A DNA stretch of 64,000 nucleotides, taken from contig CAZCHH010000006.1 of the NCBI GenBank assembly GCA_964498585.1, positions 1,554-65,553 of the forward strand, given 5' to 3'. The stretch comes from an uncultured Hyphomicrobiales bacterium. Lineage in GTDB: Bacteria > Bacteroidota > Ignavibacteria > Kapaibacteriales > UBA2268. This document shows positions 1,592 to 62,419 of this stretch, one piece after another. Within the stretch, counting starts at the first letter, position 1; every line of letters starts with the position of its first letter. A program made the position numbers and the translations under genes. The notes beneath the pieces were generated by a model. The model was not told the origin of the DNA, made no database searches, and saw only the letters and a list, made by a program, of their open reading frames with translations.

Positions 1592-1774
1592 TTGCTTTAT
1601 TCGGATGATTTTATAAAATATTTTTCGAAAGTTTGATGCGACCAGTGAGCAGATGTCCTATATTTTGGATATGCTGAACATCTGAATTTTTATGCTAATT
1701 CCCAAGTTACACTATGGATGGTGATATAAAAATGTAGGGAAAAGGCATACCTTTTCTCGACTCTTTAGAGCTAT

Positions 1775-1893: not shown

Positions 1894-1900
1894 TTTGAAC

Positions 1901-2449
1901 TTACAAACCATTTAATATTTTTTCTATATTCATATTCAACTTTTGATTATTGGCAAATAAATCTCTGTATGAATAAAAATCTAATTTATGCTTTTGTTTT
2001 GAAAATACCATTAAAGCTGGAGTTTGAACTACTTTGAAATAACCGAAAAATCCTTCTTTTGAATTTGTTGGCGGAATAGAATCTCGCTCCTGATGTATAT
2101 CGAAATAAAATTCCTTACAATTAAAGAGCCGTTTTAAATTTACTAAATTCTTCTTCATAGTAATAATGTCGTTCGGGCAGCGGGATATTATTTTTATTTT
2201 ATATTCGTTTTTCTTTTGTTCCAAAATGCTTTTTTCAAGGTGCTTGAAGCAATCATGGCAGCAGTAGCTATTTATTAAAATTAGAAATTGAGTATCATCA
2301 CCTTCAAAAACATTAACAGTATCAAAAGTAGTGTTTAAAACATAAATTTTAGTTACGGAATTATACAGTTCTTCATTTGCAAATACACTTGAAATAAAGA
2401 AAACAAGAGCAATAAATAAAATTTTACTTTTCCACATATTCATAAACAA
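1901..2449 (-). CDS. Secreted thioredoxin-fold protein (TlpA/redoxin-like)
   Basis: N-terminal signal peptide, CxxC (CCHDC) after a beta-strand, and a later VVQTP cis-Pro-like loop. Overlaps the upstream gene. Confidence 0.6.
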   Translation of the reverse strand: MFMNMWKSKILFIALVFFISSVFANEELYNSVTKIYVLNTTFDTVNVFEGDDTQFLILINSYCCHDCFKHLEKSILEQKKNEYKIKIISRCPNDIITMKKNLVNLKRLFNCKEFYFDIHQERDSIPPTNSKEGFFGYFKVVQTPALMVFSKQKHKLDFYSYRDLFANNQKLNMNIEKILNGL

Positions 2450-3605
2450 TTATTGTGAAAGAAAGGTCGTTCTTTTTGTAGTATTCGTCTGTTTGTTTTT
2501 TTAACTCAGCAAATGTCATAGTTTTATAATTTTCTTCTTCTAAATCAAAAGGATAATTTGTTATTACAAATAACTTAGAATTGCTTATGCTATATGTTAT
2601 ATTATAAATTGGAAGTTTGTCGAAAGAAAATTGAGCATTTTCTTCTAAGTCTTGCTGCAAATCACTTTTTAAGAGGTTCCACTTCCCATTTCTAAAACCC
2701 CAAATATCAAAATAAAGAAAATAATCAGCTACCGCTTTGGGTTTTGACCAAAGCAAAACAAAAGTAGAATCATTTATAAAACTCATCCTGTGAATTAAAC
2801 TAATCAAACCAGTAAATGGCCTTAGCTTGTCAATTTCATACTTAATTTCTGTATTTGTTATGTCAATTGATTTTAAAATTGAATCTGTTGTTGGATGTGT
2901 TTTCCAGTCAACATCATTACGTGCAATTTCATCAGTAACTTCATTCTTTGAATTATAAACCTTTATTTTATAATTATTAGCATCGGCAACTAAAGTAAAA
3001 TTTGAATTTGCTTCAATAAGATTCCTTGGTCCAAAAAAAGTAAATTGGAAACCTTCTGGGTTGGGTAACAGCTCATCAATTACATTTTTTTCTTTTTTTA
3101 AATCGTATTTGATTAAATGAGTTTGAGTATCTTCATTCATTGTAGAAGAAGCTATACCACAATCATAAAGAATAATAAAATCATTATCAATAACAATATT
3201 ATCAAACCAACCTTTGAATATAAAATTATCTTCATAATAATAATTGTCATCTTTCCATTTGTAAATCAAAGTGCTATCCCAACTTAATAATGTAAAATAT
3301 CTATCATTAACGTCAATATTATTGGTATAGCACTTTCTATTATTTTCAATTTTAAAAATTTTATAATCTTTTGTTTTTTCATCAAACTTAAACAAGTAAT
3401 TAAAATAGTTTCCTTTTTCGTCTTTTTCTATTTGCTTAATAAAGATGTAAATATTGCCATTATTATATTTGGTAATTAAATCAAATTTGGTAATATCTGG
3501 AATATCTAATCTTATAGAATGTTCATATTTGAAATTTTCTAATAAACTTTCAGAATAGAGATTTAAACTGAATAAAATGGAAAAAAGAAAAATTAATTTT
3601 TTCAT
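2424..3605 (-). CDS. Secreted putative beta-propeller protein
   Basis: Signal peptide MKKLIFLFSILFSLNLYS and repeated short beta-strand units (IYIF, LFKFD, LIKYD, IKVYN). The fold is inferred. Confidence 0.6.
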   Translation of the reverse strand: MKKLIFLFSILFSLNLYSESLLENFKYEHSIRLDIPDITKFDLITKYNNGNIYIFIKQIEKDEKGNYFNYLFKFDEKTKDYKIFKIENNRKCYTNNIDVNDRYFTLLSWDSTLIYKWKDDNYYYEDNFIFKGWFDNIVIDNDFIILYDCGIASSTMNEDTQTHLIKYDLKKEKNVIDELLPNPEGFQFTFFGPRNLIEANSNFTLVADANNYKIKVYNSKNEVTDEIARNDVDWKTHPTTDSILKSIDITNTEIKYEIDKLRPFTGLISLIHRMSFINDSTFVLLWSKPKAVADYFLYFDIWGFRNGKWNLLKSDLQQDLEENAQFSFDKLPIYNITYSISNSKLFVITNYPFDLEEENYKTMTFAELKKQTDEYYKKNDLSFTIIVYEYVEK

Positions 3606-3633
3606 TGGAATTCTTTCTAATAATTATAAAATG

Positions 3634-3669
3634 AACATCAACCATTGGGTTAACCCGATGGTTGATGTT
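3634..3669. other. 36-bp near-perfect palindrome/hairpin shared with 59290-59325
   Basis: aacatcaaccat-t-gggttaaccc-g-atggttgatgtt; no U-tract follows. Confidence 0.8.
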
Positions 3670-3740
3670 AAATTAAAGTGAATTCATAATTAAAGTAAAT
3701 AAATAAAATGACTCTTATTCATTTATTTTAATTTATAATT

Positions 3741-3890
3741 TTAATCAGGAATTAGCATAATATCAACATAGATATTACTGTTTTTTATTTCCATTCCGCT
3801 CCAAGTAACAGATCTGGAATAATAATGATTATCATACCAAAAGTTAGCATAATGTGTTCCAGAATAAGTACCAATAATTATTTCAACAGA
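3741..3890 (-). pseudogene. Start-less 3' gene remnant (49 codons, ending ...VDIMLIPD*)
   Basis: Open frame SVEIIIGTYSGTHYANFWYDNHYYSRSVTWSGMEIKNSNIYVDIMLIPD-TAA, preceded directly by an in-frame TAG at 3893-3891. Confidence 0.45.
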
Positions 3891-3897
3891 CTAATAA

Positions 3898-4257
3898 TCA
3901 ATTTCTCCTTTGAATAAAGTAATATATAACATTTGCTAACATATTGAAGAATGATATCATTTTAAAAATAAATACTTTAGAATCATTATTTATTAATAAT
4001 TCAATAATTAAAATAAAAACTGTACATAATATAGGTATTATAATAAGAAGATTTGATAATTTTGGATATTTAATAGTATCATTATTTTTTTTATTATTTC
4101 TAAAATCATCAAAGAAAGAATAATTCAAGAATAAAAGATTCAAAATAATATATATAATATAACTATCATTTTCAATATTAAAATCAAATATTAGGATAGC
4201 TAGAAAAATAATTGGTACTACAACAGATATTATTTCAGTAAAAATTTGTTTTTTCAT
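3898..4257 (-). CDS. Small polytopic membrane protein (about 4 TM), candidate immunity protein
   Basis: 119 aa with four hydrophobic segments, directly downstream of the lipoprotein gene. Confidence 0.6.
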   Translation of the reverse strand: MKKQIFTEIISVVVPIIFLAILIFDFNIENDSYIIYIILNLLFLNYSFFDDFRNNKKNNDTIKYPKLSNLLIIIPILCTVFILIIELLINNDSKVFIFKMISFFNMLANVIYYFIQRRN

Positions 4258-4345
4258 TTGATACCTTAAAATATAGTAAAATAAAAATGTAACTTCTATC
4301 TATACAATAAGATAGAAGTTACTTAAATTAAATATACTTTATTAA

Positions 4346-5191
4346 TTACCACCAATTAAATAATCTACCAATAAAGTTAGCTGCACCTGAAGCTTTTGCG
4401 CCTACTTTAACACCAGCCACTAAAGCAGGCACTGCTGCCATACCGCCACTAGCACCAGCGCAAGATAAAGTTGTAGCTGCACCTGCAATAAAATCAATAG
4501 ATCCACATACTACAATTTCAGTAGAAGACATGCCTTGAATATTATTGTTGTTAGATTTCTTATTTAATGCAGATGAATAATTAGCATGAAATATAATTGA
4601 ATTTTTGAAAAGTGCTATACTAAATAAAGCGAGGTTTTCTGTATTATTCCAATTGATTGATAATATTTCATCTTCTACATCATTTATTCTATTCATAATA
4701 TCATTATAACTTAAAACATTTGAACTATCAATTAAATCTTCTGCCATATCTAGTACTTTAATTGAATACGTTATATCTCTTTGTGTTAAAATATTTGAAT
4801 TATAAATTTGATACCTATAATTAGAAATAGTTGTATTTACATTATTTATACCTATTAACAAATTCATAGTGGTGGTATCACTTAAATCGCCGCAGCTACT
4901 TATCAACGAATCTGGAAAATATCCGCTAATGTAATCATCAGCCATATTACTTATATAGTCTATAAAGTCATAATCAGGCCATTGTGAAGGAAGTTCATTA
5001 CTAAAATTATTAAGAACATATTCCAATACATCATTATGTGCAACTCCCACCCATTCAAGCCGATTCGCAACAGATAGAACCTTATCACCTTTTTGATTAT
5101 ATTTTGTTACAATTTGATTGTCGTCTTCGGTGCAACTTATTATTAATACTAGCATTACTATTAGCAAACTAAAAAACTTGTTTAGTTTCAT
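4346..5191 (-). CDS. Lipoprotein with a C-terminal Gly/Ala-rich hydrophobic (bacteriocin-like) tail
   Basis: Lipobox IISC followed by acidic TEDD; C-terminus ...IAGAATTLSCAGASGGMAAVPALVAGVKVGAKASGAANFIGRLFNWW. Confidence 0.7.
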   Translation of the reverse strand: MKLNKFFSLLIVMLVLIISCTEDDNQIVTKYNQKGDKVLSVANRLEWVGVAHNDVLEYVLNNFSNELPSQWPDYDFIDYISNMADDYISGYFPDSLISSCGDLSDTTTMNLLIGINNVNTTISNYRYQIYNSNILTQRDITYSIKVLDMAEDLIDSSNVLSYNDIMNRINDVEDEILSINWNNTENLALFSIALFKNSIIFHANYSSALNKKSNNNNIQGMSSTEIVVCGSIDFIAGAATTLSCAGASGGMAAVPALVAGVKVGAKASGAANFIGRLFNWW

Positions 5192-5338
5192 AATTTTTAC
5201 TCCAAATTTAATTAAAAAAAATTATTTTTGAGAACATTTTTTAGAATAAATTTAGTTCATTTACCTACTTTGCTAATTTCAAAAGTTCTTCCAAGCCGGA
5301 AATAAAGTCCTTTTAAAATTTGCATAAATGAACTATTA

Positions 5339-5366
5339 CAAATATATAAAAAAAAAAAAAAACAAA
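5339..5366 (-). promoter_or_regulatory. Bacteroidota-type promoter (TTTG...TATATTTG) with a T15 tract in the spacer
   Basis: Minus strand reads TTTG-T15-A-TATATTTG upstream of the lipoprotein gene. Confidence 0.55.
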
Positions 5367-5482
5367 TATTTTTTTCATTTTTTTTGATTATGAATAAAAA
5401 TTAATTTGTTGTTCATTTTTCGTTCACCATTTCAGTAATCCTTTCAAAATAAAAATATTTTACAACCAATTAATATTTTCCT

Positions 5483-5490
5483 TAATTTTG
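5483..5490 (+). promoter_or_regulatory. -7 promoter element (TAnnTTTG) of the Ehr operon
   Basis: TAATTTTG 36 bp before the ATG at 5527. Confidence 0.55.
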
Positions 5491-5526
5491 AAAATAAAGA
5501 TATTGAAATTATGAAATATATATAAA

Positions 5527-7500
5527 ATGGAAATAACATATACGCTGTTGTTCTTGCCGATTATCTTTTGCATTCCTATATTTTTTGGGAATGTAAAAAT
5601 ACGATATTATTCATCTTTACTGCTAGCACTCTACATTTCCATAATAAGTTCAATCCCAGCTTTCGACATCTTAATAAATAATTTAAATACATTTACTGCT
5701 TCTATTTATTCCACTGAAATCACAATTGATGGTTTAAGTGCATTTTTCATTTTGGTAACGAACTTTACAATGCTAACTGGAATGCTCTTTTCCAATGGAT
5801 ATTTAGAACCATATATAAAAAGAAAAAAGCCGGCAGTTATTGCATTACACTATAGCAGCTATATTCTCTTACACCTTTCAATGCTGCTCGTTCTGGTTTT
5901 CAGGAATGGATTTGCTTTTCTCGTTGCATGGGAGCTGATGGCAGTGGCTTCTTTCCTTCTAATACTATTTGAAGGTGAAATACTTACAACACTAAAAACT
6001 GCCGTAAATTATCTAATTCAAATGCACATTGGCTTTGTATTTCTTCTAATTGCAATACTGATTTTCAGCAATTCTACCGGCAGTATGAGTTTCGATTCAC
6101 TTGCAGATTATTTTAAGTACAATGAAAACATTGGCTTATTTGCATTGTTTTTCATTGGTTTTTCTGTAAAAGCAGGTGTAATTCCACTTCATACCTGGCT
6201 GCCTGAAGCACATCCTGCTGCACCATCACACGTTTCCGGCACTATGTCCGGCGTTATGATAAAAATGGGTATTTATGGAATAATAAGAATTTTAAGCTAT
6301 ATTCAATATGATTTGTATAGTATTGGAATGTTTATTCTTATTATAGCTGCTATTTCCGGTTTGCTCGGAGTTATTATGGCAATTGTCCAGCACGATATAA
6401 AGAAACTTCTTGCATACCATAGCATTGAAAATATTGGAATTATATGCATGGGAATTGGTCTCGGTACGCTTGGTCTGGGAATGAACAGCCCATTAGTAGC
6501 AATGCTTGGCTTTAGCGGAGCTTTACTTCACGTGTTAAATCACTCTTTATTCAAATCATTACTTTTTTTCAGTGCTGGTTCAGTTTATAAGCAATATCAC
6601 ACACGCAGCATAGATAGTTTTGGCGGAGTAATCAAAAAAATGCCCAGAAGTACTTTCTTTTTTCTAATTGGAGCAATAGCAATATGCGGGCTTCCACCTC
6701 TTAACGGTTTTATCTCAGAAATGCTGATTTACATTGGACTTTTTAAAGGATTGCTCGGTGGAACTTTTAATAATTCAATTTTGATGCTATTTGGCATTAT
6801 CTCCCTTGTTTTAATTGGAGGATTAGCAATTTTCTGTTTTACCAAGGTTTTTGGTGTTGTTTTTTTGGGAAGTCCAAGAAAAGTAAAAGATGTAAATGTT
6901 AAGGAAGCATCTAACGAAATGCTTTTTCCAATGCTGCTTATTTCTATTTTAATCGTATTAATCGGGCTTTTCCCTATGCTTTTTATACAACCGATTAATA
7001 ATATTGTAAGCGGACTTTTCGAAATCAACTACGAAAGTAGTTTTCTTGCTATTTCAGACACATTTAGCAAAATTAATATTGTTAGTTTTGTTTTAATTGG
7101 AATTACCTTATTGCTGTTTCTTTTGCGTTCAAAAATACTGAAGAAAAGGGAAGTAAGCTATGTTCCTACTTGGGGTTGTGGCTCTTTGAATGCTTCTGCA
7201 AAGCAGCAATATACAGGAAATTCCTTTGCAAACAGTTTCAGTGAAATTGCAAATCCAATATTAAAAATTGAAAAAGATAATATTCTTATAGAAGAAGAAG
7301 AAATCGTGCCAGCCAGTCGGAGATATTCTACTCATCAGGTCGATGTTTTTGGTTTGCTTAATTTTAGAATTGCAGATTTTATTATGACTTTGTTAAAGAA
7401 GCTTGCACGTTTGCAAACAGGTAAAATTCAGCATTATATTCTTTATACTTTTATTTTTATTCTAATAATTTTTGCATTGATGTATTTAAATTTAATATGA
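5527..7500 (+). CDS. hyfB: Hyf/Ehr complex antiporter-like membrane subunit (HyfB/NuoL/MrpA-like)
   Basis: Many TM helices; KAGVIPLHTWLPEAHPAAPSHVSG, KKLLAYHSIEN and GLPPLNGFISE motifs. Confidence 0.9.
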   Translation: MEITYTLLFLPIIFCIPIFFGNVKIRYYSSLLLALYISIISSIPAFDILINNLNTFTASIYSTEITIDGLSAFFILVTNFTMLTGMLFSNGYLEPYIKRKKPAVIALHYSSYILLHLSMLLVLVFRNGFAFLVAWELMAVASFLLILFEGEILTTLKTAVNYLIQMHIGFVFLLIAILIFSNSTGSMSFDSLADYFKYNENIGLFALFFIGFSVKAGVIPLHTWLPEAHPAAPSHVSGTMSGVMIKMGIYGIIRILSYIQYDLYSIGMFILIIAAISGLLGVIMAIVQHDIKKLLAYHSIENIGIICMGIGLGTLGLGMNSPLVAMLGFSGALLHVLNHSLFKSLLFFSAGSVYKQYHTRSIDSFGGVIKKMPRSTFFFLIGAIAICGLPPLNGFISEMLIYIGLFKGLLGGTFNNSILMLFGIISLVLIGGLAIFCFTKVFGVVFLGSPRKVKDVNVKEASNEMLFPMLLISILIVLIGLFPMLFIQPINNIVSGLFEINYESSFLAISDTFSKINIVSFVLIGITLLLFLLRSKILKKREVSYVPTWGCGSLNASAKQQYTGNSFANSFSEIANPILKIEKDNILIEEEEIVPASRRYSTHQVDVFGLLNFRIADFIMTLLKKLARLQTGKIQHYILYTFIFILIIFALMYLNLI

Positions 7501-12972: not shown

Positions 12973-13272
12973 TTAGTTTAAAATGATTCCATAACTTTTA
13001 ATAGTATCTAAGAAACCGCTGCTATCCTCAGATTCTTTTAAAATTATCGGTTCAATTCGAGTATCTATTTCCCATAATTTGGAAAATAACTTTGTCGAAA
13101 TATCAATTGTGTTGATTGAATTATCATCAGTAACAAATGCAATATCAATGTCGCTATTTTCATTATTGGTCTTTCTTGCGTAAGAACCAAATAGTATTGC
13201 ATATTTAAAACTAAGAATATTTCTAGCTTCTTTTACAAATTCCTTTATAATTCTATTTGTTTTTTTATCCAT
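12973..13272 (-). CDS. Minimal nucleotidyltransferase (MNT) antitoxin
   Basis: ILFGSYAR...SDIDIAF (GS-x10-DxD); overlaps the 3' end of the HEPN gene. Confidence 0.88.
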   Translation of the reverse strand: MDKKTNRIIKEFVKEARNILSFKYAILFGSYARKTNNENSDIDIAFVTDDNSINTIDISTKLFSKLWEIDTRIEPIILKESEDSSGFLDTIKSYGIILN

Positions 13273-22922: not shown

Positions 22923-22976
22923 CATTTATTATCAATTACTACCGAATATTTTCCTTAAATTTATGAATAATGCAGG
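22923..22976 (+). repeat. Duplicated upstream element (copy 1 of 2)
   Basis: Matches 53032-53082 apart from 2 substitutions and a 3-nt indel. Confidence 0.8.
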
Positions 22977-28413: not shown

Positions 28414-28571
28414 TGTCATTCTGATGGTTGTCAGAATCCAACTTGGAAAAGCAAGAGAGATTGCTCAATTGTTGGTTACATTTGGGCAAGCCCAAATGCC
28501 TCATTGAAATAGCTAAAATTGAATAGCGCTGAACAATAATAAGATGGATTCTGACATTCGTCAGAATGACA
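28414..28571. mobile_element. REPIN/MITE-like palindromic element, family B, copy 1
   Basis: Ends TGTCATTCTG...CAGAATGACA with nested hairpins; homologous copies at 38155 and 52782. Confidence 0.8.
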
Positions 28572-28717
28572 CATATAATGATGTCATCGCCAATATAATA
28601 AAGCATTTGCTTTATCTTGTGGCTCAGAATGAAAAGACTGTAAAATAAAAAAATTACGAAGGGTAATGAATTCTGAATTTAAAATTTAAAGAAAATTAGA
28701 TTGAAGTTGTTTATTAT

Positions 28718-38052: not shown

Positions 38053-38154
38053 AATGATTGAAGTTAATTTAGAAAATAAATTATTTTAAATCAACCGACG
38101 TCCTAATAAACCGATGTTTGAAAAGAATCAGTTCTTGCTAATGACATCTTTTCT

Positions 38155-38306
38155 TGTCATTCTGGCGTATGCCAGAATCCATCTTGGGGAAGCAAGTGAG
38201 CTTGCCCACGAAACATTTGGGCAAGCCCAAATGCTTCAATTAAATAACTAAAATTGAATAGCGTTGAATAATAATAAGATGGATTCTGACATCCGTCAGA
38301 ATGACA
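38155..38306. mobile_element. REPIN/MITE-like element, family B, copy 2
   Basis: tgtcattctggcgtatgccagaatccatctt ... aagatggattctgacatccgtcagaatgaca. Confidence 0.82.
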
Positions 38307-38443
38307 CATTTAGTGATGTCATATCCATTTAAATAAATCCTTTGCTTTATAAGAGGGATACCAATAACAAGACTGCGAAATAAGAAACTACGAGGCATCA
38401 GGAGTTCAGAAATCCTTAAAATAATTAGGAAGTATTAACTTTG

Positions 38444-52677: not shown

Positions 52678-52781
52678 TTTTTTGCAAATATTCTGAAACA
52701 GATTAAGATTCCTCACAACGCTTCAGAATGCATTATACAGATTCCATTATGAAATGACATAAAGAATACTTATTAATAATT

Positions 52782-52933
52782 TGTCATTCTGGTGTATGCC
52801 AGAATCCATCTTAGGAATGCAAGTGAGCTTGCTCACGAAACATCTGGGCAAGCCCAAATGTATCCGTGAAATAGCTAAAATTGTATAGCGTTGAACAATA
52901 ATAAGAAGAATTCTGACATTTGTCAGAATGACG
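52782..52933. mobile_element. REPIN/MITE-like element, family B, copy 3
   Basis: tgtcattctggtgtatgccagaatccatctt ... aagaagaattctgacatttgtcagaatgac. Confidence 0.82.
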
Positions 52934-53031
52934 CTTTTAGTAATGTCAGCTCCATTTTAATAAAGGTCTTCTTTTATCAGGGTGATTCGAGATGACCAAA
53001 AAAAAAATAATAAAAACAAATTAGTATAAAT

Positions 53032-53082
53032 CATTTATTATCAATTACCGATTATTTTCCTTGAATTTATGAATAATGCAGG
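53032..53082 (+). repeat. Duplicated upstream element (copy 2 of 2)
   Basis: Matches 22923-22976. Confidence 0.8.
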
Positions 53083-58464: not shown

Positions 58465-58486
58465 TTTTTTTTTTTTTTTATATTGC
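58465..58486 (+). promoter_or_regulatory. T15 tract abutting a TATATTGC -7-like element
   Basis: T15 at 58465-58479, then ATATTGC; upstream of the gene at 58651. Confidence 0.5.
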
Positions 58487-58650
58487 AATTATAGAAATAA
58501 ACATGAAAAAAAAGAGAAAAAATATAGAAAAGAAAAAGGAATATTATTTAAGATATAGAAAAAAAATCCCCCGCCTTTTTGGTTTCGAGCTATAAAAAGC
58601 AGGGGCAAATTAACATATAATTTATAAACAAATTTAAGGAGAAATGCTTT

Positions 58651-59241
58651 ATGAAAAAAGCATTATTTTTACTAGCGTTATTAATAATTGTATTTTCTAA
58701 CGTTAAAGCTTGTCCAGATGGTTGGGCTGAATCAGCAAGAGAAACTATTAATTTTAATGGTTGTACTTATGAGTATATTTATTGCTACGGTATGCTTAAT
58801 GGTTTCCATTCCATTGCTCTTTCTGAAATCAATGTTGTTTACAATCCACCTTTCTGCACTGGTTTGTCTTTTGACCTTAATCCTCAAGAAATTACTGATG
58901 CAATTTTAATTCAAATTGCTATTGACCCAGTAATATATAATTGGGCAGGTTATGATGATATTCCTCCTTGTCCTAGTGGTCTAATGTGTATAATGAGAAT
59001 GTATGATGCAATTTGCTATAACGGATGGTACACTTATACAAGACTTAACAAAGATGGCACAACAACTGTTGTTCAATCAATGAATAAATGCGACGATGAA
59101 TTAAGGTCTTGTAATGAAACCGTAACAATATGCTGGGAATACGATGAATATGGCAATAGAGAATACAAAATAACAAGAGTTGGTAGTTCTTTAATAGGTC
59201 CAGAGTGTTTATATCCATGCCACACTAATTGCGAATATTAA
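58651..59241 (+). CDS. Small secreted cysteine-rich protein (13 Cys)
   Basis: Signal peptide ending VKA; mature chain begins CPDGW; AAGGAG RBS-like sequence upstream. Confidence 0.85.
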   Translation: MKKALFLLALLIIVFSNVKACPDGWAESARETINFNGCTYEYIYCYGMLNGFHSIALSEINVVYNPPFCTGLSFDLNPQEITDAILIQIAIDPVIYNWAGYDDIPPCPSGLMCIMRMYDAICYNGWYTYTRLNKDGTTTVVQSMNKCDDELRSCNETVTICWEYDEYGNREYKITRVGSSLIGPECLYPCHTNCEY

Positions 59242-59289
59242 AAAATTTATGTAAATGCATTTAGTTTTTCAACTTTAACTCTTTTTAAG

Positions 59290-59325
59290 ATAATCAACCA
59301 TCTGATTAACCCGATGGTTGATTAT
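59290..59325. other. Hairpin homologous to 3634-3669
   Basis: 13-bp stem ataatcaaccatc/gatggttgattat; 29 of 36 nt identical to the 3634 copy. Confidence 0.8.
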
Positions 59326-59403
59326 ATAGATGGGAAGCTACTTCACAACCTGAACAATTCTGACTATATATTCATTAAACCGAAAACAAAAACGGAGTTT
59401 TTT

Positions 59404-60861
59404 ATGAAAAAATTAATCTTTTTGCTTTTAATATTTTTTTCTTATACACTTTTCCCACAAAGTTGGGAATTTATACCTCAGGAAAGTATTCTACAATTTA
59501 ACGATTCTTATCAGGATTATGGAAAGTTAAATATTGATGAAATATTAATAAAAGGTGATTCTGTTGTATTTGTAAGAGTTAACACTGATTCTATTCTTAT
59601 GATATATGACAAAAATCAAAGAGTATTTTATCATATTTTAAAGAAGAATTTTTGGAAATGTCTGAAAAATGATTCTTTGTATAACATTTATAAAGATTTA
59701 GGTATTAATAATTTATATTATGATTCAAAAGAGAATTTTTGGTTTAGCTGTGGTGATAGTATAATACGAGTTACACCAGATACAGCATTTATTTACAGCA
59801 ATGTTTTTATTAGAGAACTAAATAGCACACATAAAATAAGACCAGCAAACAGAACCATTAGAAAAATTAAAGAAGACAAACTTGGAAATATTTGGATATA
59901 TTTGTTTGCTCTTATAAAGGAAAATGATACTACTTGGTCAGAATATAGAATGCTCTGCAAATATATCAACAATAGAATTGAGACAATTTTTACTACTAAG
60001 AATTTTTATCAATTTTCTTCAAAATGTAATTTCGTTTTTGATAATCAAAATAGGATTTGGTACGTTAATGGCGATACTTGTTATATTATCAAAGACGAAT
60101 TAGTTGAAAAAAAGTTCAGTACATGGGAAACTAAAGATGGCTATGGTTATTTTTCTGATTTAGTTATTGATTCAAAAGATAACTTTTACGCTACAAATAA
60201 TAGTATGCTTCTATTTAAATATAATGGAGATACTTTAATTTCAGATAGGCGCATATTGGATATTGAAAGATATATTACTTCAATAGGAAATAATTATTGG
60301 CTGAGGATTGATAGTTTGGATAATTTATGGGTAATCGGTTATGAAACCTGTAACTTATATAAAATTGACAAAGATGGAAATTTAACAACTTACGAAGTTC
60401 CCAAAGTAGATACATCTGCAGAAGTAGAGTGGTGCTATAAAGCATTAATGGAAATTGACAAAAATGGAAAAATCTGGTTACCTGCTCAAAGTATGGGAAA
60501 AAGTTATGGTATTTATATTTTTAATTCAGATACAAATTCAACTGTAGTAGATGAAAAAATTCGGCATAATACTGCTCTAATGCCAGATGTATGGATATAT
60601 AACATTTATCCAAACCCGTCTGATAACTTAGTAACACTTGATTTCTTTTTAGAAAATACTGTAGTTGACCAACTTGAAGTAGATATTTATAATATTATGG
60701 GAATGAAAATCAAAGATGTAACTGGACAAATAGACTATGACAGAAGTCGAATGAGGGCAAATATGAAATTTTCAGTAGCAGAGTTGCCTCGTGGCAGCTA
60801 TATTGTTTCAGTAAAAGCAGGAAAAAGTAAGAAATTTCAATTACTTTTAGTAGGCTATTAA
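59404..60861 (+). CDS. T9SS substrate, beta-propeller (two-component-regulator-propeller-like) paralog 1
   Basis: Signal MKKLIFLLLIFF; D(S/K)xGNxW repeats; CTD IYPNPS...KKFQLLLVGY. Start reassigned from 59314 by comparison with the paralog. Confidence 0.82.
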   Translation: MKKLIFLLLIFFSYTLFPQSWEFIPQESILQFNDSYQDYGKLNIDEILIKGDSVVFVRVNTDSILMIYDKNQRVFYHILKKNFWKCLKNDSLYNIYKDLGINNLYYDSKENFWFSCGDSIIRVTPDTAFIYSNVFIRELNSTHKIRPANRTIRKIKEDKLGNIWIYLFALIKENDTTWSEYRMLCKYINNRIETIFTTKNFYQFSSKCNFVFDNQNRIWYVNGDTCYIIKDELVEKKFSTWETKDGYGYFSDLVIDSKDNFYATNNSMLLFKYNGDTLISDRRILDIERYITSIGNNYWLRIDSLDNLWVIGYETCNLYKIDKDGNLTTYEVPKVDTSAEVEWCYKALMEIDKNGKIWLPAQSMGKSYGIYIFNSDTNSTVVDEKIRHNTALMPDVWIYNIYPNPSDNLVTLDFFLENTVVDQLEVDIYNIMGMKIKDVTGQIDYDRSRMRANMKFSVAELPRGSYIVSVKAGKSKKFQLLLVGY

Positions 60862-60940
60862 GATATATAAAACTTAAGCGAACTTCTTGAAACTCAATGA
60901 AAGTTTAAGATAAAACCACAAACCAAAACGGAGTTTTTTT

Positions 60941-62419
60941 ATGAAAAAATTAATTCTTTTCTTTTTTATATTCTTGTCTTATAATCTATTTTCTCAAAGC
61001 TGGGAGTTTATACCACAGGATAGTATTTTAAAATATAATGAAATATATCAAAATTATGGAAAATTAAATATCTCTACTATAATTACAAAAGGTGACTCTA
61101 CAATTTTTGTTAGGTACGATAGAGATACAATACTTATGATTTATGATTATAATAAAAAAGAAATGTTTCATATTTTAAAAGAAGATTTTTGGAAGTGTTT
61201 AAGAAATGATTCTTTGTATAATATTTACAAAAAGACTAATATTTGGAATTTATTTATTGATTCAAAAGGAAATTATTGGTTTACTATTCCTGATACTTTG
61301 TATAAGAATACACCTGTTTTTAAAGTTACTCCCGATACAGCATACTTAATAAATCAAATCTATGTAAGAGAACTTGATAGTTCCATTTATATTACTCCTT
61401 TTCCAAATAAAACAATTCATAAATTAAAAGAAGATAAAAATGGAGATATATGGCTTTTTCTTTTGAGCTATATTAGGTTTAATGATTCTCTACATAATGA
61501 ATTTGAGATTTTATGTAAATATGTGAATAATAGATTTGAAACGATTTTTATGAAAAAAATCTTTTGGCAGTATGTTTCAAAATGCAATTTCGTTTTTGAT
61601 AATCAGAATCGGGTTTGGTATGTTGTTGGAGATACCTGCTATATTATCAAAGATGAAATCGTAGAAAAGAAGATTAGCACTATGGATGTGAAAGATGGCT
61701 ATGGCTATTTTTCAGAGTTAGCAATAGATACAAAAGGAAATTTTTTTGCTACAAATAATAGTTTGATTATATTTAAGTATGATGGTGATTCTTTAACAAT
61801 AGATAGGCGTATATTAGATATTGAAAGATATTTAACTCATGTAGGGAGTTATCCTTATAGGATGCGGATTGATAGTTTAGATAATCTATGGCTTTTTGGT
61901 TACGAAACATGCAATTTATATAAAATTGACAAGGAAGGAAATTTAACTACTTACGATGTTCCAAAAGTTGATACATCAGCAGAAGTCGAATGGTGCTATA
62001 AAATGTATATGGAAGTGGATAGGCACGGAAGATTATGGATACCAGCTCAAAGCATGGGGAAAAGCTATGGTATCTTTATTTTCAATCCAGACACAACAAC
62101 AAGCGTAGAGGAGCATATAAATTCAAACACTCCCGGAATGCCAGACGTAAAAGTTTATAAAATTTATCCCAACCCAGCGGATAATATAGTTACGCTTGAA
62201 TTTTTTATATATTATGACGTAGTTGACCAGCTTGAAGTAGGTATTTATAATATTATGGGAATGAAAATCAAAGATGTAACTGGACAAATAGACTACGACA
62301 GAAGTCGAATGAGGGCAAATCTCAAGTTTTCAGTAGCAGATTTGCCTCGTGGTAGCTATATTGTTTCAGTAAAAGCAGGGAAAACCAGTTCGTATAAATT
62401 GTTGCTGGTTGGTTATTAA
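60941..62419 (+). CDS. T9SS substrate, beta-propeller paralog 2 (tandem duplicate)
   Basis: Colinear with 59404-60861; near-identical CTD. Confidence 0.85.
   Translation: MKKLILFFFIFLSYNLFSQSWEFIPQDSILKYNEIYQNYGKLNISTIITKGDSTIFVRYDRDTILMIYDYNKKEMFHILKEDFWKCLRNDSLYNIYKKTNIWNLFIDSKGNYWFTIPDTLYKNTPVFKVTPDTAYLINQIYVRELDSSIYITPFPNKTIHKLKEDKNGDIWLFLLSYIRFNDSLHNEFEILCKYVNNRFETIFMKKIFWQYVSKCNFVFDNQNRVWYVVGDTCYIIKDEIVEKKISTMDVKDGYGYFSELAIDTKGNFFATNNSLIIFKYDGDSLTIDRRILDIERYLTHVGSYPYRMRIDSLDNLWLFGYETCNLYKIDKEGNLTTYDVPKVDTSAEVEWCYKMYMEVDRHGRLWIPAQSMGKSYGIFIFNPDTTTSVEEHINSNTPGMPDVKVYKIYPNPADNIVTLEFFIYYDVVDQLEVGIYNIMGMKIKDVTGQIDYDRSRMRANLKFSVADLPRGSYIVSVKAGKTSSYKLLLVGY

Follow-up and report, generated by a model that had tools for sequence, protein, structure and literature searches.

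Gene content of Locus A

Locus A is a group of genes and intergenic elements on the minus strand of a 64,000-nucleotide stretch of DNA (hereafter the window; C6:1554-65553) taken from the draft genome of an uncultured bacterium of the Kapaibacteriales (3.34 Mb, 31.6% GC, 111 contigs). The nearest protein relatives of this organism are labelled Ignavibacteria bacterium or Candidatus Kapaibacterium, and its DNA has been found in bioreactor, digester, landfill and sludge metagenomes. A preliminary description of the sequence had listed a promoter with a run of fifteen thymines (T15), a lipoprotein gene, a gene for a small membrane protein, an orphan gene tail, a 36-bp hairpin, a beta-propeller-like gene and an overlapping gene with a CxxC motif, and all of these parts do lie on the minus strand where that description had placed them. 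Searches of Pfam, NCBIfam, PHROGs and PADLOC returned no meaningful match for the five proteins of the locus or for SP150, the family of small secreted proteins to which the orphan tail belongs, and an Rfam scan of the window reported tRNAs only.

The propeller gene (2424..3605, minus strand) encodes prot393, an exported protein with an MKKLIF start that is assigned to the six-bladed, NHL-like beta-propellers from its AlphaFold2 model and from Foldseek comparison. The model, computed from an alignment of 12 homologues, is all-beta apart from a helical insert (predicted local distance difference test, pLDDT, 88.2; predicted template modelling score, pTM, 0.87), and its DSSP assignment resolves about six groups of four strands. 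Every Foldseek match in the PDB was a beta-propeller, the NHL domain of Brat (1q7f) included, the best being BF0058 of Bacteroides fragilis (4RAA; E 1.4e-8, template modelling (TM) scores 0.53/0.58). BF0058 is annotated as a putative exported protein and resembles prot393 as an exported propeller from a bacterium of the Fibrobacterota-Chlorobiota-Bacteroidota (FCB) group, whereas the two sequences are 11% identical and no Pfam model was found to be shared between them. The family profile of prot393 matches the NHL repeat weakly (E 0.046, residues 206-234). A Pfam search of 12 family members gave no match, the NHL repeat staying below threshold, NCBIfam gave none for prot393, and prot393 carries no C-terminal Por_Secre_tail sorting domain of the type IX secretion system (T9SS).

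The propeller gene is overlapped by the gene for CxxC182 (1901..2449, minus strand), an exported TlpA/ResA-like protein with the motif CCHDC. The true start of CxxC182 is likely to be the ATG at 2437, which would leave an overlap of 14 nt, and overlap of the two genes suggests that they are translationally coupled. Across nine homologues M5, C64, C67 and P144 are invariant, the last of these within the TPA(L/I) sequence of a cis-proline loop. In the AlphaFold2 model (pLDDT 77.8) a strand (53-59) leads into a helix (65-78) that carries the CxxC motif at its N-terminus, and the top 50 Foldseek matches are all thioredoxin folds (ResA, DsbE/F, TlpA, SdbA and peroxiredoxin/Sco types; TM 0.45-0.61). 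A thioredoxin fold of the TlpA/ResA/DsbE type is predicted on these grounds; comparison with Pfam and NCBIfam models (Redoxin, AhpC-TSA, Thioredoxin_8 and others) returned nothing at E 0.1 save one irrelevant family. Downstream of the gene the terminator scan located a terminator-like hairpin (1739..1756, minus strand), a counterpart of which is conserved after the paralogous operon on C53 that is described below.

A three-gene operon of the order

The propeller family is a feature of the order to which the organism belongs. In a survey of 251 genomes from 81 genera of this order, which yielded 34 unique propeller genes or loci, it was present in 64 genomes and 37 genera, and it was found in just four of 301 genomes sampled across the phylum. 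Neighbouring genes were counted at those loci that retain enough flanking sequence (n=32 downstream, n=30 upstream). A thioredoxin-like gene lies directly downstream of the propeller gene in 27 of the 32, mostly with a 4-nt overlap, and an SP150 gene lies upstream in 18 of the 30, so that the modal layout is SP150, propeller, thioredoxin-like protein. These counts show a three-gene operon for exported proteins that is largely confined to the order.

The upstream slot is variable, being occupied by SP150, by a lipoprotein gene together with a membrane-protein gene, or by nothing, and genes of the lipoprotein family precede the propeller only in three loci of the window type. The preliminary description had proposed that a variable secreted product is co-expressed with a dedicated propeller and a redox helper, and had looked to relatives for synteny of the propeller and thioredoxin-like genes with a small secreted protein. 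That synteny is borne out by the counts above. The broader proposal survives in part: the layout recurs and the upstream slot does vary, but the secreted partner is SP150, of which Locus A retains the tail, and not the lipoprotein.

The SP150 proteins (145-190 aa) are mutually homologous, with phmmer E values down to 1e-30. C63, G67 and W125 are invariant and C71 is nearly so, giving a cysteine pair in the pattern C-x3-G-x3-C-x-W, and the C-terminus bears the motif SGxYxxN...YYRxVxW. Neither Pfam nor a profile search of PDB sequences gave a match. The genome of the window encodes a third member of the family (147 aa; C22:25456-27547) that is accompanied by neither a propeller nor a thioredoxin-like gene; it is preceded by a gene for a 113-aa membrane protein, adjoins a divergent pair of small genes (194 aa and 133 aa) that may encode a sigma and an anti-sigma factor, and has a copy of the ATCAACC hairpin discussed below 245 nt downstream.

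Replacement of SP150 at Locus A

Upstream of the propeller of Locus A only a remnant of SP150 is left (3741..3893, minus strand), comprising the last ~44 codons and the stop codon and having no start codon. It is recognised by the SP150 profile in hmmsearch (E 3.7e-11, profile positions 102-144 of 149) and reads YSGTHYANF...YSRSVTWS, with the motif YSGTHYANF..Y(Y/S)R(T/S)VTWS in common with the 187-aa protein of L022. The possibility that the tail is still translated was considered and rejected, as an ATG, GTG or TTG start is missing and its reading frame differs from that of mem119, the gene before it.

What the operon looked like before the change can be judged from an intact paralog on C53 of the same genome, in which a 145-aa SP150 (C53 4382-4819) stands in the place of the lipoprotein gene, mem119 and the tail. 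The propellers of the two operons are 73% and the thioredoxin-like proteins 94% identical in amino acid sequence, with 83% DNA identity over window positions 1898-3676. Beyond the inserted genes homology is met again in two places, over the promoter at 5347-5420 and over the ribosome-binding site with the first few codons at 5181-5215. The stretch that differs outright thus reaches, within the first gene, from codon ~8 to the point where ~44 codons are left. Other strains also have the replaced layout, tail included, on contigs L011-L013 and L016, the propellers of which are 70-83% identical; the replacement hence predates the divergence of those strains. The intact layout is kept in L002, L014 and L015. 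Taken together, these comparisons show that an unrelated module of two genes has taken the place of most of SP150, both at Locus A and in four or more related strains.

Identity between the window (1898-3676) and C53 (2598-4372) is unevenly spread: it is highest in the thioredoxin-like gene (89-95%), and the propeller gene has 80-87% over its 3' half but 68-74% over the 5' part. This gradient between the paralogous operons suggests either gene conversion at the 3' end or a faster change of the N-terminal blades.

Promoter and expression

The sole match to TTG-N15-23-TAnnTTTG on the minus strand between 1600 and 5600 is TTG-N16-TATATTTG at 5365-5339. It forms part of a promoter (5339..5385, minus strand) made up of an A-rich upstream element, the TTG (5365-5363), a spacer and the -7 box TATATTTG (5346-5339), and the T15 tract (5348-5362) together with one A constitutes the entire 16-nt spacer. 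The strong promoters of the genome, for example those ahead of tRNA genes, read GTGAAAAAAATATTTG-N19-TAnnTTTG and have the -33/-7 layout of the Bacteroidota type. The promoter region of Locus A is homologous to the promoter of the C53 paralog.

Homopolymer switches in promoter spacers are well known from the poly-G tract of porA and the poly-C tract of opc in Neisseria and from the poly-A tract of the vlp genes in Mycoplasma hyorhinis, and the T15 tract could likewise act as a slipped-strand switch for phase variation or expression tuning, common to Locus A and to the families of Cys-rich proteins and T9SS propellers that include Locus B (below). As in those systems, the two promoter boxes are separated by a long homopolymer, the genes encode surface or secreted proteins, multigene families are involved and tract length differs among copies and strains; unlike them, the tract is poly-T, sits within a Bacteroidota-type -33/-7 promoter and is known here from assembled sequences alone. 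The distribution of such tracts in the genome speaks for a switch. Runs of 15 A or T occur only twice in the 3.34 Mb (5348-5362 and 58465-58479), and six of the eight runs of at least 13 are upstream of Locus A, of loci with the Cys-rich protein sec196 and a propeller (C6, C2, C10, C18) or of a related Cys-rich locus on C2. The tract is flanked by the two promoter boxes, TTG at -33 and TAnnTTTG at -7, which in tRNA promoters have a spacing of 19. Its length also varies: loci orthologous to Locus A have T15, T15 and T13, the last with a spacer 6 nt longer, and one further metagenome, X11, holds variants of 13 and 14 (this and all other public DNA and RNA sequencing runs were examined as assembled Logan contigs). 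Paralogous promoters of the Locus B type have T12, T14 and T15 within the conserved flanks tatttcaT(n)atattgcaat. Such variation is compatible with a slippage-prone expression switch. Against this, T15 is identical in the contigs of three other samples (X1-X3), the resulting spacers of 16, 21 and 23 give no clear ON length, runs of A or T are favoured at 32% GC, and the tract may have another role, as a rigid spacer or an UP-like element. We regard a switch as possible, with the odds somewhat against it; it would be compatible with the explanation of the locus that we favour below.

Transcripts of the lipoprotein gene were assembled at 100% identity, from ~5273 to ~4349, in four independent sludge or digester metatranscriptomes, and the gene therefore appears to be well expressed in situ. 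These RNA contigs end just short of a terminator-like hairpin between the lipoprotein gene and mem119 (4289..4322, minus strand), which has a fold energy of -17.9 kcal/mol (z -6.0) and consists of a 13-bp stem followed by a T-run. No metatranscriptome contig covers mem119, the propeller or the thioredoxin-like gene of this strain, absence from assembled contigs being no proof of absence from the transcript, and the expected co-transcription of the locus is to that extent not supported. The single promoter and the restriction of RNA contigs to the lipoprotein gene together point to one transcription unit that is strongly attenuated once its first gene has been read.

Outside the locus, a repeated motif of ~26-48 nt (AATATTTTCCTTAA(A/T)TTT...AATAA) was observed at window positions 5472-5497, 13064-13089, 22945-22970 and 53035-53082. 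One AATATTTTCCTTAA copy is situated just upstream of a membrane-complex gene at 5527 on the plus strand, and the motif may be a shared regulatory site.

The lipoprotein and its membrane partner

The incoming module consists of the open reading frame of lipo281 (4346..5191, minus strand), a 281-aa lipoprotein with the lipobox LIISC, and its positional partner mem119 (3898..4257, minus strand), a polytopic membrane protein of 119 aa with about four hydrophobic helices. The lipo281 family comprises 128 clusters at 50% identity, with members mostly of ~250-320 aa, some of them named Candidatus Kapaibacterium. The lipobox cysteine is nearly invariant; the N-domain carries the motif NPYEWVGxxHN and the central part xWxxxExxAL...KHS, and the hydrophobic, Gly/Ala-rich C-terminus usually ends in GWW (GRLFNWW in lipo281). 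No paralogue of lipo281 was found in the genome, and lipo281 matched nothing in Pfam, NCBIfam, PHROGs or PADLOC or in a profile search of PDB sequences. Among 20 members of the family no Pfam or NCBIfam model was matched, those for bacteriocins and glycine zippers included, save for a weak match to DUF6861 in five. For mem119 no link was found to any immunity family or to MauE.

A gene for a small protein with three or four hydrophobic helices directly follows the gene of the lipo281 family in every context examined (L011-13, L016, L017/18 and L019), and in L017/18 and L019 the pair occurs without the propeller operon. The sequence of the small partner is not conserved among these contexts. 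Comparison of the window with L016 gives 83% identity for the propeller, 30% for the lipoprotein and no detectable similarity for the membrane partners, a gradient compatible with diversifying selection on a cognate pair.

Two identities come into question for this pair, that of a toxin with its immunity protein and that of a surface lipoprotein with a partner in the membrane. In the former case the system would be bacteriocin-like or contact-dependent, the Gly/Ala tail of lipo281 would be membrane-active and mem119 would protect the producer, SP150 having been displaced much as old toxin-immunity cassettes are by new ones. The steep fall of identity between the window and L016, the strict adjacency of the pair across distant contexts, the orphan tail downstream of it, the composition of the lipo281 tail (37% Gly+Ala, with small-xxx-small motifs) and the expression of lipo281 in four communities can all be read in this sense. 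However, no bacteriocin, toxin or immunity model that was searched gave a match, the surroundings are devoid of genes for export or processing, and the lipobox and the conserved N-domain of 200 aa would suit a resident lipoprotein of the envelope just as well. Furthermore, the displaced tail is not homologous to the incoming gene, unlike the orphan arrays of Rhs and contact-dependent inhibition (CDI) systems. On balance a toxin-immunity pair seems to us an unlikely identity for the module.

The dispersed hairpin

The spacer between SP150 and the propeller contains a 36-bp palindrome (3634..3669; core 3637-3666, ATCAACCATYGGGTTAACCCRATGGTTGAT) that lies 31 nt before the start of the propeller gene. 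On the coding strand its RNA would fold at -21.7 kcal/mol (z -5.3); the tail that follows, GUUCAUUUUAU, is moderately U-rich, and the terminator scan made no call at the hairpin. The core ATCAACCATCGGGTTAACCCGATGGTTGAT recurs in 39 copies within 7 mismatches in the genome. With no more than 2 mismatches allowed, the count is 24 in this genome, 15, 4 and 0 in the three congeners, 1-2 in two other genera and 0 in 35 further relatives; a reversed control pattern had 0 copies anywhere. The 36 intergenic copies lie between convergent (13) or tandem (23) genes and never between divergent ones, for which 21% would be expected (P ~2e-4). Changes in the stem are compensatory (e.g. CCAACGG...CCGTTGG and ATCGACC...GGTCGAT) and many copies abut other hairpin modules. 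The SP150-propeller spacer contains the hairpin in the window, C53, L011 and L016; in L014, L015 and L002 this spacer measures 47 nt and has no hairpin.

Given its genome-wide copies and its presence or absence in the same spacer among relatives, the hairpin is a dispersed element like the repetitive extragenic palindromes (REP) and carries no signal specific to the locus. The idea that it marks a type of locus, put forward in the preliminary description with unrelated gene junctions named as the counter-evidence, does not hold, since a search of the genome put it at ~36 such junctions. The likeness to REP and bacterial interspersed mosaic elements (BIME) of enterobacteria and pseudomonads extends to the size of the palindrome (30-36 bp), to tens of extragenic copies after the 3' ends of genes and in operon spacers, to compensatory stem changes, to mosaics with other hairpin modules and to presence or absence among relatives. 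In contrast to REP and BIME, the hairpin flanks no Y1 transposase of the REP-associated tyrosine transposase (RAYT) type, is fully symmetric and is confined to a single Kapabacteria-like genus.

A more specific proposal would make the hairpin an element of the Ssn type (SRM/NTS-like) or a REP element of the RAYT type, served by a dedicated nuclease or transposase. The published NTS/SRM motif is a hairpin with an oriented HGTCWY flank on its 5' side (PMC11893778), and several copies of our hairpin do abut modules of a GTCAT type that resemble it. The genome, moreover, has genes for two Y1 transposases and for three small GIY-YIG proteins of a single domain each. Yet the hairpin itself is a symmetric palindrome that starts with ATCAACC and has no oriented GTCWY flank of the kind that defines the SRMs, and the 700 nt to either side of the GIY-YIG and Y1 genes contain neither a copy nor a half-site. 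A dedicated enzyme of either kind is accordingly judged improbable.

Some further observations concern the hairpins and their surroundings. The three GIY-YIG proteins (96-109 aa) are encoded within 5 kb of each other (C16:51496-56104); they are candidate Ssn-like nucleases and none is flanked by the hairpin. The window contains three elements of ~200 nt with nested palindromes (28419-28624, 38154-38359 and 52781-52986) and the ends TGTCATTCTGAC...GTCAGAATCCATCTT. These ends look much like the NTS/SRM hairpin of the literature and its GTCAT flank, and such modules often abut the ATCAACC hairpin elsewhere. Finally, a contig of metagenome X4 joins 3666 directly to 3776, so that 109 nt beside the hairpin of Locus A are gone, and an RNA contig of another strain diverges at 3776; the segment 3667-3775 is strain-variable at the edge of the repeat.

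Locus B and its families

Towards the other end of the window, Locus B (58465..62419, plus strand) has the same order of parts that the preliminary description had noted: a T15 tract (58465-58479), a gene for sec196, a small, secreted and Cys-rich protein of 196 aa (58651-59241), a homologous palindrome (59293-59322) and two genes for propellers with MKKLI starts (59404-60861 and 60941-62419). The hairpins of the two loci are 90% identical, with 0 such matches expected in shuffled sequence. Both propellers of Locus B bear the Por_Secre_tail domain of the T9SS (E 1e-9 and 3e-9), and with the propeller of Locus A they share only 20 residues of the signal peptide. sec196 is unrelated to lipo281, and Locus B has no thioredoxin gene. 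A remote homology between SP150 and sec196, which would unite the two loci, was tried and rejected: hmmsearch gave no match, and hhalign gave 29% probability for an alignment limited to the signal peptide.

The sec196 protein has 12 paralogues in the genome, nine of them with a paralogous propeller of ~490 aa within the next 1.5 kb downstream, which makes at least nine pairs. This multigene family is spread over window positions 58651-62419 and C1, C2, C5, C10, C12, C18, C24, C26, C38 and C67, the propeller family numbering 15 copies. Two further loci (C2:22056-24891 and C70:2012-4850) have a triad of a Cys-rich protein of 222-229 aa, a ~490-aa protein and a second Cys-rich protein of ~225 aa. 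The first protein of the triad has 15-16 cysteines and an N-terminal CPxxY/F motif, and its copy on C2 stands behind a promoter with a T14 tract.

Judging from its paralogues, Locus B is a genuine repeated architecture, but a different one from the family of Locus A. The view that both belong to one family of modular accessory loci (T15 promoter, variable secreted product, hairpin and propeller, with the redox helper in A) had in its favour the shared order of parts, the similar hairpins and the only two T15 runs of the genome, but it is largely refuted and now very improbable: the propellers have no more than a signal peptide in common, sec196 is related neither to lipo281 nor to SP150, the T9SS tails and the missing thioredoxin gene set Locus B apart, the spacers of the eight other sec196-propeller pairs contain different hairpins or none, and, the hairpin being a genome-wide repeat at unrelated junctions, similar layouts do not imply a common system.

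A probable composite origin for Locus A

With some confidence, we interpret Locus A as a composite of two independent modules and a repeat, with a mode of expression and a function that can be proposed. The operon, the replacement and the repeat come from sequence comparison, whereas the steps that concern expression and function are inferred. The backbone is the operon of SP150, the NHL-like six-bladed propeller and the TlpA/ResA-like CxxC protein, the last two genes of which are probably translationally coupled. The lipoprotein with its tail resembling a Gly/Ala zipper and its polytopic membrane partner now use the old promoter of SP150, an intact paralog being retained on C53, and the genus-restricted, REP-like palindrome has landed in the spacer between SP150 and the propeller, where its RNA stem could mark a 3' end or attenuate read-through. 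One promoter of the FCB type, with T15 as its spacer, would drive the whole locus; most transcripts would stop after the lipoprotein gene, and read-through would supply the genes downstream. As to function, the propeller and the thioredoxin-like protein would act as an exported pair on a small exported partner. In the intact operons SP150, with its conserved cysteine pair, is the obvious candidate client. Locus A no longer has this client, and its pair may work on the SP150 encoded on C53 or may be on its way to loss.

Several observations weigh against this interpretation. Not all loci conform to the layout, as the propeller lacks a downstream thioredoxin-like gene in five of 32 cases and an upstream SP150 in 12 of 30. 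The match at the start of the replaced gene (5181-5215) is short (35 nt, E 4e-4). The dipeptide inside the CxxC motif is variable and contains no proline, and the best match of the CxxC182 profile among PDB sequences is the heavy-metal-associated (HMA) domain of a copper ATPase (E 3.5e-5); because of this weak match, a role of CxxC182 in metal handling instead of redox chemistry is possible. Lastly, SP150 has lost the second conserved cysteine in the genus of the window, which weakens a simple model of SP150 as a disulfide substrate.

Relation to known systems

The closest parallel is found in NHLRC2 and SOQ1, in which a thioredoxin-like domain is fused to a six-bladed NHL beta-propeller and the CxxC motif without proline, CC(I/V)NC, faces the binding surface of the propeller; in SOQ1 the pair is extracytoplasmic, and the partner on which it acts is a small protein of the lumen (PMC6107167; bioRxiv 10.1101/2021.03.16.435614). 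Locus A likewise pairs a TlpA/DsbE-like fold with an NHL-type six-bladed propeller, and the absence of proline from the CxxC motif is common to CxxC182 (CCHDC), NHLRC2 (CC(I/V)NC) and DipZ (SCINC). In contrast to NHLRC2 and SOQ1, the two parts are separate polypeptides encoded by overlapping genes with the propeller first, and a third conserved gene, SP150, belongs to the operon. The first cysteine of the CCxxC motif, moreover, is not conserved in the CxxC182 family, and profile searches of PDB sequences with either the propeller or the thioredoxin-like family gave no match to NHLRC2.

A looser analogy, at the level of layout only, exists with the genes of methylamine dehydrogenase (MADH), where mauA encodes a small Cys-containing exported subunit, mauB the beta-propeller large subunit and mauD a thioredoxin-like maturation helper. 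In both cases a small exported Cys-containing protein, a propeller and a thioredoxin-like helper are encoded together. On the other hand, the MADH propeller is seven-bladed, SP150 has one conserved cysteine pair, and no gene like mauE is present (for the role of MauE see bioRxiv 10.64898/2026.03.05.709764).

One may go further and see in SP150, the propeller and the thioredoxin-like protein an undescribed exported system, the split counterpart of NHLRC2 and SOQ1 with the small client encoded beside it. The upstream slot would then serve as a site of recombination that takes in hypervariable cassettes of a lipoprotein and its membrane partner, resembling toxin-immunity pairs, and hypermutable poly-T spacers in the promoters would gate the expression of both Locus A and the T9SS propellers. 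Such a far-reaching scheme is speculative, and we would not expect it to hold as a whole. The kinds of element met here (a thioredoxin-propeller operon, a REP-like repeat and a homopolymer-bearing promoter) are known ones, of which Locus A is a new version.

Implications

The three families of the operon, SP150, the propeller and its thioredoxin-like partner, matched no curated model in Pfam, NCBIfam, PHROGs or PADLOC, and the three-gene operon is the unit to name for annotators. The lineage that has it is uncultured, yet common in both digesters and sludge. Locus A, in addition, allows the remodelling of an operon to be seen: an incoming two-gene cassette took the place of the first gene and left behind a datable remnant of 44 codons. 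The concentration of the longest poly-A/T runs at the promoters of secreted proteins provides a testable lead for phase variation in environmental bacteria of the Bacteroidota group. Overall, the operon is a tractable candidate for learning what pairs of a thioredoxin-like protein and an NHL propeller do, those of the NHLRC2 type included.

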